From assembly GCA_963752905.1 (NCBI GenBank), contig CAVWAC010000003.1:324572-388571 (forward strand): a stretch of DNA of 64,000 nucleotides, given 5' to 3'. A program made the position numbers and the translations under genes. Under the pieces are notes generated by a model. That model had not been told where the DNA came from. It worked only from the letters and a program-made list of their open reading frames with translations, and ran no database searches. Position 1 is the first letter of the stretch; the number at the start of each line of letters is the position of its first letter. Shown in pieces: positions 30,593-34,512 of this stretch. This stretch comes from an uncultured Solirubrobacterales bacterium (lineage in GTDB: Bacteria; Actinomycetota; Thermoleophilia; Solirubrobacterales; Solirubrobacteraceae).

Positions 30593-31549
30593 ATGGCCGG
30601 CGAGGACACCGCCCGCCCGGAGGTCACCCTCGACGTCGACGGCCGCAGCGTGCGGATCAGCAACCCTGACCGGGTCTATTTCTCCGCGCGCGGCGAGACG
30701 AAGCTCGACCTCGTCAACTACTACCTCAGCGTCGGCGAGGGGATCGTCCGCGCCCTGCGCGAGCGGCCGTGCATGCTGCATCGCTTCCCCGGCGGTGTCG
30801 GCAGCAAGAAGGTCCACCAGAAGCGGGTGCCGTCGGGCGCGCCGCCGTGGCTGGAGACGGTGCGGGTCGACTTTCCCTCCGGCCGTCATGCCGACGAGCT
30901 GTGCGTGACCGAGCTGGCCAGCGTCATCTGGGCGGTGCAGATGTCGACCGTGGAGTTCCACCCGTGGAACTCGCGCCGCGGGAACGTCGAGTGCCCGGAC
31001 GAATGGCGGATCGACATCGACCCAATGCCCGAGTGCGACTTCGACCGGGTCCGCCGCGTCGCTGCGGTCGCGCACGAGGTGCTCGACGAGCTCGGCGTCA
31101 CCGGATGGCCGAAGACCTCGGGCGGGAGCGGGATCCACATCTATGTCCGGATCGAGCCGCGCTGGGGGTTCGGGGAGCTCCGCCGAGCGGCGCTCGCCTT
31201 CGCCCGCGAGGTCGAGCGCCGGACCCCCGCCGACGCCACCACGACCTGGTGGCGCAGGGACCGCGAACCGGACAAGGCGTTCGTCGATTACAACCAGAAT
31301 GCGCGCGACCACACGATCGCCTGCGCGTACTCGGTGCGCGGTGTCGAGCACGGCAGCGTCTCGACCCCGATCGCCTGGGAGGAGATCGCCGACGTCGACC
31401 CGTCCGAGCTCACGATCGCCACCGTCCCGGACCGGTTCGCGCAGCTCGGGGACCTCCACGCCGGCATCGACGATCGCGCCTTCTCGCTCGAGCCGCTGCT
31501 CGAGTGGGCCGATCGCGACCGGCTCGAGGTGCCCGAGTCCGAGGCCTGA
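30593..31549 (+). CDS. Stand-alone LigD-type primase-polymerase (Prim-PolC/PolD-like)
   Basis: ISNPDRVYF, STVEFHPW, RIDIDP, KTSGGSGIHIY, DYNQNARD, AYSVR. Confidence 0.9.
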   Translation: MAGEDTARPEVTLDVDGRSVRISNPDRVYFSARGETKLDLVNYYLSVGEGIVRALRERPCMLHRFPGGVGSKKVHQKRVPSGAPPWLETVRVDFPSGRHADELCVTELASVIWAVQMSTVEFHPWNSRRGNVECPDEWRIDIDPMPECDFDRVRRVAAVAHEVLDELGVTGWPKTSGGSGIHIYVRIEPRWGFGELRRAALAFAREVERRTPADATTTWWRRDREPDKAFVDYNQNARDHTIACAYSVRGVEHGSVSTPIAWEEIADVDPSELTIATVPDRFAQLGDLHAGIDDRAFSLEPLLEWADRDRLEVPESEA

Positions 31550-31655
31550 CGGCGACCCGCCCATCACAGGCATGACGGCCGCCGCGCCCCGGCGCGCGGC
31601 GACCCCATGCCCGCCCCTGCCTGTTGCCCCCAGCCGGCGCCGTCACCCTCGCCCC

Positions 31656-31913
31656 CTAGCGGTGGGTGACCTGCCGCCCGCCCGCGCCGGTGGTCCGGCG
31701 GGGCGTCGCGGCTCCCGCCGGGCGGGTGCGCGACAGCCGCGCGCGGACCCGGGCGACCAGCGAGGTTCGCCGGACGCCACCCTCGCGCAGGGCCAGCTCG
31801 TGCCGCGCCCGTTGTTCGACGGCGCGCGCGCTCTCCCGCCATCGGGCCTGGCTCCCGGCGCTGACCCGCCCACCGCGGCTCAGCAACAGGAACTCGTCGT
31901 CGATGCGATACAT
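31656..31913 (-). CDS. Small Arg-rich hypothetical protein (85 aa)
   Basis: MYRIDDEFLLLSRGG…; GGAGG SD 8 nt upstream of the ATG. Confidence 0.6.
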   Translation of the reverse strand: MYRIDDEFLLLSRGGRVSAGSQARWRESARAVEQRARHELALREGGVRRTSLVARVRARLSRTRPAGAATPRRTTGAGGRQVTHR

Positions 31914-32178
31914 CGTGGGTTCCTCCGTGTCGTCTCGGGCCAGCCCGGACAGCGACCCCTCGAGCAGGGGTCATCGCCCGGGCCGGCCCGGTGTTCAGTG
32001 TCAGTTCATCCCCCCGCGTGTCACCGTCACCGAGCAGCAGTCAGTGACACTGCCGGGGCAACGGTGTGAATCGGGGTACGGCTATTGCGTGTGTTGCAGC
32101 CGGCCCTCGCGGGCGGCGCTCACATCAGGGCTGATTTGTCTCCAACTGCCATCACCTGCCATTCCGTCTCGAAGCAAC

Positions 32179-32202
32179 AAAAAAGGCGGCCCGTGGGCCG
32201 CC
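32179..32202 (-). terminator. Intrinsic terminator (attenuator terminator)
   Basis: Minus strand GGCGGCC-CACG-GGCCGCC followed by TTTTTTGTT. Confidence 0.85.
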
Positions 32203-32234
32203 CTTGCTGAAACTGCCGATGTGCGCTGGTGCTT

Positions 32235-32369
32235 TCAGCGCACCGACCTCCCAGCAAGGGCATCGCAATTCCCGCGCACGGCGAGCACCATCGAGGCATC
32301 CCGTGCTGTCGCCGAAGCGACAGCGGTCGCGATCTGAAGGACGTGGATGTTCTTGATGGGCGTGTTCAT
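32235..32369 (-). CDS. Leader peptide / uORF (44 aa), not in the ORF track
   Basis: MNTPIKNIHVLQIATAVASATARDASMVLAVRGNCDALAGRSVR; GGGAG SD; lies between a promoter and a terminator. Confidence 0.7.
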   Translation of the reverse strand: MNTPIKNIHVLQIATAVASATARDASMVLAVRGNCDALAGRSVR

Positions 32370-32394
32370 AACGTGCTCCCTACTGCTTCGGAGC

Positions 32395-32423
32395 AGGGTA
32401 ACTCACGGACCGGATGTTTGCAA
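32395..32423 (-). promoter_or_regulatory. Housekeeping sigma-type promoter
   Basis: TTGCAA - 17 nt - TACCCT upstream of the uORF. Confidence 0.75.
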
Positions 32424-32467
32424 GGTCCGCGGAGCAAAAAGTGTCACTCCACCGGGTCCGCGCCTCG

Positions 32468-33115
32468 CTACGCCTCCGCGCGAAGGTAGGCGAGCACGGC
32501 GAGCACCCGCCGGTTGTCCTCGCCCCCGGTGGGCAGCTCGAGCTTTCCGAAGATGCTCGAGACGTGCTTCTCTACCGCCCCGGACGTGACGACGAGCGTC
32601 TCGGCGATCGCCTGGTTGGAGCGGCCCTCGGCCATCAGCGCGAGCACCTCGCGCTCGCGGGGGGTGAGGCTGTCGATCGCGCTCGAGCGCCGGCGGGCGA
32701 GGATCTGCGCGACGACCTCGGGGTCGAGCACGGTGCCGCCGCCGGCGACGCGCCGGACGGCCGCGACGAACTCCTCGACGTCGGCTACCCGGTCCTTGAG
32801 GAGATAGCCGATTCCACCCTTGCCGTCGGCAAGCAGCTCGGCGGCGTAGGTCTGCTCGACGTGCTGGGAGAGGATGAGCACCGGCAGCCCCGGCTGGCGC
32901 TCGCGCGCGGCGAGGGCGGCGCGCAGACCCTCGTCGCGGAAGCTCGGCGGCAGCCGCACATCGACGACGCACACGTCCGGCTTGTGGCCGAACGCGGCGG
33001 ACACGAAGCGATCGCCATCGGCGACGGCCGCGACGACCTCCATCCCGTTGTCCTGCAGCAGCCGGGTCAGCCCGTCGCGGAGCAGCGCGAGGTCCTCACA
33101 GATCACGACGCGCAC
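32468..33115 (-). CDS. NarL/LuxR family response regulator
   Basis: MRVVICED, VVDVRLPP, YLLKDR, LTPREREVLALMAEGRSN. Confidence 0.95.
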   Translation of the reverse strand: MRVVICEDLALLRDGLTRLLQDNGMEVVAAVADGDRFVSAAFGHKPDVCVVDVRLPPSFRDEGLRAALAARERQPGLPVLILSQHVEQTYAAELLADGKGGIGYLLKDRVADVEEFVAAVRRVAGGGTVLDPEVVAQILARRRSSAIDSLTPREREVLALMAEGRSNQAIAETLVVTSGAVEKHVSSIFGKLELPTGGEDNRRVLAVLAYLRAEA

Positions 33116-34347
33116 GGCAGCTCCGCGCGGACGACCGTCGGACCGCCGGGGGGACTGTCGACGCTCAGGGTTCCGTCGAGCGCGGCGACGCGCTTGCGCA
33201 ATCCGGCGAGGCCCGAGCCCTCGGGGTCAGCGCCGCCGCGGCCGTCGTCGACAATCTCGGCGACGAGCTCGCGGCTCGGGCCCTCCCAGACGTGGACGGA
33301 GATCCGCGTCGCGGCGGCGTGCTTGCGCGCGTTGGCCAGCGCCTCGGCGACGACGAAGTACACGGCGGTCTCGCGCGGGCCGGCGGCGTCGCCGGGCAGC
33401 TCGACGGCGAGCTCGACCGGGGGCGTGCGGCCCGAGACGAGCGCGGTCAGCGCCGCGTCGAGTCCGCGGTCCTGGAGGATGCTCGGACCGATCCCCCGCA
33501 CGAGCGCGCGGAGCTCGGCCATCGCGGCCTGGGCCTGACCGCGCGCGTTGCTGACGTGCTCGAGCGCGGTGTCCGGATCGGCCTGGGCCAGTCGCTGCTC
33601 GGCCATGCCGAGGTCCATGGCGAGCGCGACGAGGCGCGCCTGAGCGCCGTCATGCAGGTCCCGCTCGACGCGCTGGAGCTCGGTCGTGGCGGCGTCGACG
33701 GCGCCCGCGCGCGTCTCCGAGAGCGTCTGCACGCGCTCCTCGAGCACCCGGCGGCCGGGGCCGAGCAGCGCCGCCGCCACCTGGGCCTGGAGCAGCGCGG
33801 TCCAGCGCACGACCCACGCGGCAGCGATCGCCGCGGCGGGCGCGATCAGCGGGCCGGCGATCGAGACGAGCACGACGTGAGCGTGAATCCATCCCGGTAG
33901 CGACCAGGCCCAGATCGGCAGCGTGAGCAGCGCGAGGGTGGTCGTCCAGACGGTGACGGCGACCGTGAACGCGAGCACACCGAGGGGCAGTGAGACGAGC
34001 ATCCACACGGCGTCCAGCCACGTCTGGCGATCGCCGAGCACCGACAGCAGCCGAACGATCGTCCCCTCGCCCTTCGGCGGTGCGTAGACCGCGGCCACCG
34101 GCCGCCGCAGGACGCTCGCCGTCCGTGCCCGCTCGAACCCGCACCACCAGCGGTCGACGTGGGCGATGAGCACGGCAAGCGGCAGGCCGACGACGAGGAT
34201 GATCATCCCGAGCGCCATCGACGCCCCGGTCACGAGGAACGTGAACGCGGCGATCCCCGTGATGAGCGACACGAGGAGATAGAACGTCTCGCGCCAGCAC
34301 GCGGCGGTCAGGGGACGGCGGCAGACAGTGGCAAACGTCGGAGGCAC
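33103..34347 (-). CDS. Sensor histidine kinase (HisKA_3) with putative sensor TM domain (start approximate)
   Basis: ERDLHDGAQARLV, VVAEALANARKHA, DDGRGGA, GSGLAGL. Confidence 0.92.
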   Translation of the reverse strand: MPPTFATVCRRPLTAACWRETFYLLVSLITGIAAFTFLVTGASMALGMIILVVGLPLAVLIAHVDRWWCGFERARTASVLRRPVAAVYAPPKGEGTIVRLLSVLGDRQTWLDAVWMLVSLPLGVLAFTVAVTVWTTTLALLTLPIWAWSLPGWIHAHVVLVSIAGPLIAPAAAIAAAWVVRWTALLQAQVAAALLGPGRRVLEERVQTLSETRAGAVDAATTELQRVERDLHDGAQARLVALAMDLGMAEQRLAQADPDTALEHVSNARGQAQAAMAELRALVRGIGPSILQDRGLDAALTALVSGRTPPVELAVELPGDAAGPRETAVYFVVAEALANARKHAAATRISVHVWEGPSRELVAEIVDDGRGGADPEGSGLAGLRKRVAALDGTLSVDSPPGGPTVVRAELPCAS

Positions 34348-34512
34348 CGGCAAAGGATCGCCCGCCGGACGGCTGCGCGCAATGCGGCCGGCCACCGGTT
34401 GCACTCTGCGGTTTTCCCCACCCCGATACGCCAGCTGCCGTCCTGGCCGCAGTCGGCATCCGGTGGGACCGTGGCGGCAGCGCAGAGAAATGCCGACCGG
34501 GAGGAGTCCGTC

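Follow-up and report, generated by a model that had tools for sequence, protein, structure and literature searches.

PA5471.1-armZ of Pseudomonas aeruginosa is an antibiotic-responsive transcription attenuator that is mediated by the ribosome. In bmrB-bmrCD of Bacillus subtilis (PMC4191407) and in the mef/mel leader (PMC4335068), a leader ORF overlaps the antiterminator arm ahead of an intrinsic terminator, and stalling turns the genes on. For the whiB7 leader of mycobacteria and Streptomyces, efficient translation of the uORF leads to a rho-independent terminator, whilst impaired translation leads to an antiterminator and read-through (10.1101/2023.06.02.543512). The whiB7 uORF of M. smegmatis codes for 19 of the 20 amino acids (10.1101/2023.06.02.543512); it samples many amino acids, and this means that it answers to antibiotics as well as to numerous defects of amino-acid or tRNA supply or function. 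The tRNA L-array (trn operon) of Anabaena PCC 7120 is silent in normal growth, induced by translational stress and co-regulated with rtcB, and its control lies with promoter repeats that are bound by the RHH repressor TrcR (PMC8421152, PMC10272220).

The element described here lies on the minus strand of a 64,000-nucleotide stretch of DNA (the window) from an uncultured Solirubrobacterales bacterium. The promoter, Shine-Dalgarno sequence, 44-codon uORF, antiterminator arms, nested helix and U-tailed terminator that an earlier note had read from the sequence are all found where it placed them (Table 1). The locus thus has a promoter-proximal ORF with a ribosome-binding site, an intrinsic terminator ahead of the genes, an exclusive and covarying alternative helix with one arm inside the ORF, and co-directional genes without a promoter of their own. 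We consider it likely that the element is a ribosome-dependent leader-peptide transcription attenuator which reads general translation performance, in the manner of whiB7.

Table 1. Features of the element and the region 3′ of it in the window
Feature	Position	Strand	Remarks
GTGACAC motif	32441..32447	minus	just 5′ of the −35 box; kept in the nearest relative, L075; heptamer again in the spacer 3′ of the terminator
Promoter: −35 box TTGCAA / 17-nt spacer / −10 box TACCCT	32423-32418 / 32400-32395	minus	promoter 32395..32423
Shine-Dalgarno sequence GGGAG	32380-32376	minus	6 nt 5′ of the uORF ATG
Leader uORF, 44 codons + TGA	32369..32235	minus	peptide MNTPIKNIHVLQIATAVASATARDASMVLAVRGNCDALAGRSVR, then stop; codons 2-35 are the presumed sensing window
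uORF-internal 8-bp hairpin GCTGTCGC-TTCG-GCGACAGC	32324-32305	minus	UUCG loop
P1 5′ arm (antiterminator) GCCCTTGCTG	32261-32252	minus	uORF codons 36-39; perfect complement of CAGCAAGGGC (32209-32200)
AGG (Arg) codon in the conserved GAGG	32247..32249	minus	four codons before the stop
P2 inner hairpin arms GTGCGCTG / CAGCGCAC	32243-32236 / 32228-32221	minus	encloses the uORF stop
uORF stop TGA	32237-32235	minus	within P2
P1 3′ arm CAGCAAGGGC	32209-32200	minus	last six bases common to the terminator 5′ arm
Intrinsic terminator AAGGGCGGCC-CACG-GGCCGCCTTT	32205-32182, T-run to 32179	minus	10-pair stem, 7 G-C, CACG loop, T6
Second ribosome-binding site AGGTGAT	32157-32151	minus	complementary to the 16S 3′ end
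Mini-ORF, ATG start	32152..32120	minus	MAVGDKSALM, then stop; overlaps the TTG mini-ORF
Mini-ORF, TTG start, 6 codons	32145..32125	minus	METNQP, then stop; overlaps the ATG mini-ORF
Structured spacer with GTGAC(AC) repeats	31914..32119	minus	
Long spacer hairpin	31992-31935	minus	just 5′ of the next ribosome-binding site; gave a spurious miRNA-like match in the Rfam search
85-aa very basic protein (SBP) ORF, MYRIDDEFLLLSRGGRV...	31913..31656	minus	putative regulated gene; convergent with a ligD-like gene ending at 31549

Like the whiB7 leader, which is the nearest worked-out case, the element occurs in Actinomycetota and has a promoter-proximal uORF without a run of regulatory codons. The two are, however, unrelated in sequence or by model, the uORF stop of the window element sits atop the antiterminator hairpin with an AGG codon four codons earlier, and the targets of the family include non-coding RNA genes. 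The protein encoded downstream in the window lacks cysteine and any Pfam match and is not a WhiB, and no positive feedback of the WhiB7 type is evident. The element is not counted among the whiB7 leaders, as its downstream gene does not resemble WhiB (Fe-S, Cys-rich, AT-hook) and there is no sequence relationship. The overlap of leader ORF and antiterminator arm seen in bmrB-bmrCD and mef/mel recurs here, but these leaders and that of armZ, from Firmicutes and Pseudomonas, govern proteins of efflux or resistance, are shorter, often need drug-specific arrest motifs and have no homology to the element. As in the trpL, hisL, pheL and thrL leaders, the position of the ribosome on the leader peptide would decide between terminator and antiterminator; unlike these, the window element has neither a cognate codon run nor a clear 1:2 ‘protector’ hairpin, and without translation it is predicted to default to read-through and not to super-attenuation. 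An amino-acid biosynthesis leader is ruled out, since the peptide is diverse and free of any single-amino-acid codon run, no biosynthetic genes lie downstream of the element at the loci among the matches listed, and no Rfam leader matches. The earlier note had favoured a general translation sensor on the strength of the missing codon run, and a peptide that varies freely outside its RNA-constrained tail bears this out and fits the whiB7 type.

The 226-nt window RNA folds with −104.2 kcal/mol, compared with −86.5 ± 4.3 kcal/mol for dinucleotide shuffles (z = −4.1). In the minimum-energy fold, a check that had been proposed at the outset, the long P1-P2 antiterminator helix is formed and the terminator is reduced to a 4-bp GGCC/GGCC stub, 3 nt from the U-run. 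The alternative helix excludes the terminator because P1 and the terminator 5′ arm compete for 6 nt. That the two folds are mutually exclusive had been asserted for the window alone and extends to the family: of 120 sequences, 116 have P1 in their minimum-energy fold, and in 115 of the 120 the antiterminator takes away 2–6 of the approximately 11 terminator pairs, whilst the terminator itself is kept in all members. Imposing the whole terminator on the fold carries a median penalty of +2.7 kcal/mol, and one of +4.0 kcal/mol for the window sequence. This small gap between the folds means that the outcome depends on kinetics. As the P1 3′ arm is made before the terminator 3′ arm, an unobstructed transcript should take the read-through fold, which is also the equilibrium fold of the window RNA without translation. 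A terminator scan of positions 31400-32800 found one terminator-like site only, that at 32205-32179.

The hairpin with the UUCG loop inside the uORF, to which the earlier note also drew attention, exists in the window but is not a feature of the family: it is lost in the nearest relative (L075) and is local to the window genome. uORF bodies as a class are mildly structured (mean z of −1.1 against mononucleotide shuffles). Neither the comparison with L075 nor the folding of uORF bodies supports a view of the hairpin as a conserved element, whether for pausing or of the 1:2 kind.

A blastn search of 40 relatives matched the 3′ ~90 nt of the window element in three genomes, and all three share with the window the promoter, the two competing helices and the frame of the uORF, which here has 43–46 codons. 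A first covariance model (R1), run on 201 genomes from 51 genera of the window's family, detected the element in 23 genomes and 14 genera, usually once per genome. A strict DNA pattern, built from the members found in this way and applied to 185,579 species with one genome apiece, identified at least 119 species-level genomes with the element. The labels among the matches listed are nearly all Solirubrobacterales, Solirubrobacteraceae, Thermoleophilia or less specific uncultured-actinobacterial names; one match among those listed lies in a bin labelled Burkholderia sp. The relatives of the window genome are all uncultured MAGs. A second model (R2), based on 100 sequences and run phylum-wide on 401 genomes, gave strong matches confined to the window's own family, and outside it only weak terminator-like matches, barring one in a bin with 7% contamination. 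A distribution wider than the family is thus unsupported by this search. Rfam 15, searched with the window and a relative in E-value mode and with 14 loci in gathering mode, returned only chance-level matches (E 0.07–9) and tRNAs, and no riboswitch or leader model matched in the window or its relatives, in keeping with the earlier view of the element as unrecognised. The 44-aa peptide, used as a query against its own genome, found no paralogue.

Conservation of the ten-base complement in homologues had been set beforehand as the test of the proposal. Both the pairing and the nested helix are kept, with compensatory changes, for example CCCTTGCTG/CAGCAAGGG replaced by CCCTCGCTG/CAGCGAGGG or by CCCTCGCGC/GCGCGAGGG. 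In an alignment of 100 members (A3), the fitting of which to the model favours structure, standard pairs fill 88.8% of cells, and 33–56% when the 3′ partners are slid by 1–3 columns, a control that is independent of the fitting. Changes on both sides of a pair occur in 166 cells, compared with 55 ± 6 after shuffling (0 of 500 shuffles reached as high a count), and in P2 they are seen at all six modelled pairs. Equally independent of the fitting is the P1 pair 11/130, a position at which the scan pattern accepted any Y/R combination and at which C-G occurs 88 times, U-A 10 times, U-G twice and C-A never. The element is a strongly conserved, putative RNA switch and far from a chance arrangement, since at least 119 other genomes have the whole architecture and its paired positions covary.

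Of 100 clean cases, 89 have a promoter of the TTGNNN-17-TANNNT form 5′ of the uORF, and the spacer is of 17 nt in 87 of these 89. A generic sigma-70 scan of positions 31400-32800 found no match, not even at the conserved promoter itself, and so the family's own form was used for promoter scans. Among 100 members, 59 have an SD-like site 3–10 nt 5′ of the ATG of the uORF. Of the 119 matches listed, 117 have a same-frame ATG uORF that ends inside the P2 hairpin; their lengths run from 21 to 66 codons with a median of 45. One genus has a 21-codon, nearly leaderless uORF. The stop codon falls exactly four codons past the AGG of GAGG in 111 of the 119 matches listed, amongst which GAGG itself was selected as a requirement of the strict scan pattern; members found by the model, unselected in this respect, have GAGG in most cases and lack it in some.

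Indirect support for translation of the uORF comes from GC content, which in uORF bodies is 0.79 at third codon positions (GC3) and 0.59 for GC1 and GC2, and from indels in threes. Of the two remaining frames, one is interrupted by stops in 62% of uORF bodies and the other in 37%. Between L075 and the window, the uORF body is heavily diverged, with indels of 6 and 3 nt, and the promoter, 5′UTR, first codons and P1/P2/terminator block hardly differ. Conservation of the peptide is limited to its C-terminal tail, [A/S/T]-L-[A/V]-x-R-x-x-[R/P], and this tail follows the RNA: at the Leu codon, the third base covaries with its P1 partner, as the change from Ala to Val does with its own, and the Arg codon, in matches for which the pattern required GAGG, is always AGG and never CGN. 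A frame that is kept, a body that varies and a tail that is bound to the RNA together point to selection on the act and register of translation, and not on the peptide. An ArfA/BrfA-type non-stop rescue-factor gene was considered for the uORF and dropped, as the stop codon precedes the terminator.

The uORF bodies contain on average 16.0 distinct amino acids in approximately 35 residues, compared with 13.96 ± 0.15 in stop-free nucleotide shuffles, 13.65 in real protein segments from the same loci and 13.24 in N-terminal segments. Enrichment is seen for the residues N, T, M, C, H and F, and mildly, by 1.25x, for alanine. Part of this diversity could stem from relaxed selection at the protein level. 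In one case inspected by eye (L015), a gene for tRNA-Leu(UAG) lies downstream and the uORF has no CUA codon.

The earlier note had called for a search for relatives and a catalogue of the genes downstream; together with the genomes counted above, this yielded three classes of locus. In every case the downstream genes are co-directional with the element and start 20–360 nt away. In class a (approximately 77 of the 119 matches listed), the gene encodes a small, very basic protein of 60–110 aa, falling into several subfamilies, with its start 50–360 nt past the terminator. Class b (approximately 27 of the 119 matches listed) has a conserved, RNA-like structured block of ~300 nt, followed in 14 instances by arrays of 3–20 tRNA genes. 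Class c, seen in one genus, combines tRNA-like genes with a TROVE/Ro60 (Rsr) gene (Pfam E = 7e-40). This family-wide module in front of tRNA arrays and Rsr had not been seen in the earlier note. The tRNA genes 3′ of the element are co-directional in 185 cases and opposite in 2, and the 2.5 kb 5′ of the element hold no tRNAs.

The 85-aa ORF of the window (GC3 0.91) belongs to class a, and the window genome has the basic-protein version only; the ~300-nt RNA, which 8 of 24 genomes in the window's genus have, is absent there. The basic protein, which has no cysteine, matches no family in Pfam or NCBIfam and has five unnamed homologues in a collection of 5.8 billion proteins. The protein family looks largely disordered. 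An RNase P-like or SRP-like identity was considered for the ~300-nt RNA on the basis of a resemblance, and finds no support in Rfam. Past the terminator, GGTGA[TC] lies within 80 nt in 70 of the 119 matches listed, and a Shine-Dalgarno sequence with a mini-ORF, most commonly of 4 codons, is present in 71 of the 119, in both main classes. Among 73 spacers, GTGACAC occurs 54 times and its complement 7 times.

The constancy of GAGG and of its AGG codon is not accounted for by the pairing model. We speculate that a slow AGG, by placing the ribosome squarely on the P1 5′ arm, would be a neat explanation. The conservation of GAGG without that of its pairing partner could also reflect a switch operated by a factor or ligand, in which a protein or small molecule binds the P1-P2 internal loop (GAGG 5′, CAUA 3′) and stabilises or melts the antiterminator, the uORF being secondary. 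A CAUA-like stretch does recur past P2, the GUGAC repeats of the spacer are strongly strand-biased, and the commonest putative regulated product is very basic and resembles an RNA binder; the small basic protein itself could be the bound factor, giving feedback. Such a switch is nevertheless unlikely: a stop codon fixed in position relative to the hairpin in 111 of the 119 matches listed counts against it, as does the lack of any Rfam riboswitch or leader match, a conserved SD and ATG and codon periodicity would be senseless without translation, and the basic protein is usually absent from the tRNA-array and Rsr loci.

We regard as quite unlikely the proposal of a stand-alone small gene under a promoter and terminator of its own, for a structured sRNA of ~190 nt and/or a 44-aa micro-protein, in which the ‘antiterminator’ would be the sRNA body and the downstream genes would be independent. 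The promoter and strong terminator are indeed present, and downstream gene classes vary among genomes as an autonomous gene predicts. Independence of the genes is, however, hard to reconcile with their orientation and proximity, with the 185:2 bias of the tRNA genes and with promoter scans between terminator and next gene, in which TTGNNN-17-TANNNT was found at 0 of 26 and 0 of 74 loci, or 0 of 100 (unusual promoters could escape this consensus scan). The body of the peptide is unconserved, and the hairpin always has bases in common with the terminator stem. A trans role of the terminated RNA could coexist with attenuation; terminated attenuator RNAs are reported to act in trans, for example rnTrpL (PMC7968998).

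Considering the favoured scheme of leader-peptide attenuation, transcription would start from TTGCAA-17-TACCCT, and a ribosome would load at GGGAG and translate the 44-codon uORF. A ribosome that keeps pace would open and cover the 5′ strand of P1-P2 (codons 36-44) as the polymerase makes the terminator some 60 nt further on. With the P1 5′ arm covered, CAGCAAGGGC would be left without a partner, the full 10-pair terminator would form and transcription would stop at the T-run. If no ribosome is there, or if it comes late or stalls within the first ~30 codons, P1-P2 would form first and seize six bases of the terminator 5′ arm, leaving the 4-bp stub 3 nt from the T-run, past which the polymerase would continue. 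The cause might be antibiotic action, a missing charged tRNA or tRNA damage. Read-through would then cover the second ribosome-binding site with its mini-ORF, the structured spacer and the gene for the 85-aa basic protein.

The sign of this regulation, with translation leading to termination and stalling to read-through, is suggested by geometry and energetics. We infer likewise that the uORF is translated, what signal it reads and what the basic protein does. With a ribosome at codons 36-43 the P1 5′ arm is occupied, as termination requires. A ribosome parked on the stop codon covers about −15 to +12 nt, whilst the P1 5′ arm occupies −24 to −15, and hence only the edge of the arm is covered; this means that timing matters, and it is the weakest link of the model. 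For termination to be efficient, the ribosome would have to occupy codons 36-43 at the critical time, or P1 would have to be blocked sterically by the terminating ribosome. A reversed or Rho-linked scheme, in which translation of the uORF (and mini-ORF) shields the leader from Rho or opens structure to promote expression and the terminator is a constitutive damper, could draw on the long, untranslated and structured leader of ~270 nt in the window and on the strongly conserved second SD and 4–6-codon mini-ORF just past the terminator, which could load ribosomes against Rho, but is highly improbable, as it leaves unexplained why the antiterminator 5′ arm lies inside the uORF and why in 115 of 120 members one set of six bases is contested by both folds, and as the untranslated equilibrium fold is the one that permits read-through.

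The same switch fronts the ~300-nt RNA with tRNA arrays, or tRNA-like genes with Ro60/Rsr, which suggests that the family serves to turn on a response to translation stress or one of RNA quality control. The physiological logic resembles that of the Anabaena L-array, in that a spare tRNA array is tied to RNA repair (rtcB there, Rsr/Y-like RNA here). The means differ: a protein repressor acts at the promoter in Anabaena, in contrast to the cis-acting, ribosome-sensing uORF attenuator proposed here. Full-text literature searches found no paper joining ‘tRNA array’ to leader peptides or attenuation, and a leader-peptide attenuator that controls non-coding RNA genes was not found in the literature searched. 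We put forward tentatively, as a real possibility, a clade-wide, cis-encoded translation-stress regulon in Solirubrobacterales, in which ‘amino-acid sampler’ uORFs read the progress of the ribosome and hence the pools of charged tRNA, and in which a lag would call up spare tRNA arrays and the ~300-nt RNA, tRNA-like/Y-like RNAs with Ro60/Rsr, and small basic proteins.

In conclusion, the comparisons of sequence and predicted structure support a new, clade-specific family of putative translation-sensing attenuators, a known kind of switch that would be new in gating non-coding RNA genes and a family of small proteins. Little is settled about what keeps supernumerary tRNA arrays silent and about the occasions on which they come into use, and the Anabaena protein repressor is the only worked-out control of a tRNA array in the literature searched. 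The family would offer a second and simpler solution, with the ribosome itself as the sensor. The use of one switch for tRNA arrays, Ro/Y-RNA modules and basic proteins predicts that these belong to a common stress response, and shows where the function of the proteins should be sought. The work also brings to light a further, unlisted structured RNA of ~300 nt, and it provides an RNA motif of high specificity for annotating the Solirubrobacterales, an abundant and poorly studied order of soil bacteria.

At the loci of relatives where the attenuator stands beside tRNA arrays, a conserved RNA-like block of ~300-350 nt lies with the attenuator on one side and the arrays on the other. Its sequence runs in the order GGTGATGCTCAGCTTGAA ... 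GAGGCCCCGCCTGAGAGAGAAAG ... CGGGCTCCAAAGCTCCTCCACGTAGGAC ... GATCCAGGGTCGAAGGGTAGGCGAGTGGC, with variable hairpins inserted, and in the alignment of the block (A4) a long-range helix, GGCCCCGCCU/AGGCGAGUGGC, carries compensatory changes. The block was not found in the window's own genome and a comparison with Rfam gave no match; it has the appearance of a large structured RNA, as yet unlisted, associated with spare tRNA arrays.

A different arrangement is seen in one genus, g30 (loci L016, L018, L020 and L021), where the uORF has only 21 codons and is nearly leaderless. Here a tRNA-Arg(GCG/ACG)-like gene begins within about 30 nt after the terminator, followed by a spacer rich in stems; a TROVE/Ro60 (Rsr) gene comes last, in some cases after a tRNA-Asp-like gene. 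The order is reminiscent of YrlA-type Y RNAs adjoining rsr. At two further loci, L148 and L111, an attenuator-like element directly adjoins a TROVE/Rsr reading frame whose N-terminal part is missing; recombination or a chimeric assembly may have produced this junction.

Features around the attenuator in the window, and in relatives where a locus (L) is named
Feature	Position	Strand	Remark
Two-component pair	32468-34404	-	directly upstream of attenuator, same strand
GTGACAC, single copy	32441-32447	-	upstream of -35 box
Strong second ribosome-binding site (AGGTGAT) with overlapping mini-ORFs of 6 and 10 codons	32120-32157	-	directly after terminator
GTGACAC repeats	31935-32119	-	in spacer
85-aa basic protein gene	31656-31913	-	
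Double-GNAT acetyltransferase, 306 aa	L003:1886-2806, L004:2008-2928		start overlapped by small basic protein gene (TAATG)
Conserved RNA-like block	L074:3165-3528	+	also at 20-odd other loci (A4)

Upstream of the attenuator, the window encodes a histidine kinase (PF13796 sensor and HisKA_3) and a LuxR/NarL-type response regulator, with no obvious terminator between this pair and the attenuator's promoter; the arrangement is not kept in relatives. Beyond the terminator, the same Shine-Dalgarno (SD) site with a mini-ORF recurs in 71 of the 119 loci, in the basic-protein and tRNA-array classes alike, the commonest length being four codons (M-K/N/T-K/T-x). In 73 spacers compared, GTGACAC is the most enriched word and shows a strong strand bias (54 vs 7), which together suggest a motif that acts at the RNA level or in oriented protein binding. 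The SD of the basic protein is itself contained in a GGAGG-N-CCTCC palindrome in the 'MRGDPQA' subfamily.

The family of the 85-aa basic protein, which has no match to known families, shares the N-terminal motif M-x-F/L-x-R/D-D-E-F/Y-L-L-L-S-R-x-G-x-V-P. The middle part varies, has a high content of Arg and Pro and seems to be disordered, and some members carry a C-terminal Y-F/L-E-L/M-E-F motif. Given the overlap of the small basic protein gene with the acetyltransferase start in L003 and L004, the double-GNAT enzyme of these two relatives would also be under the switch.
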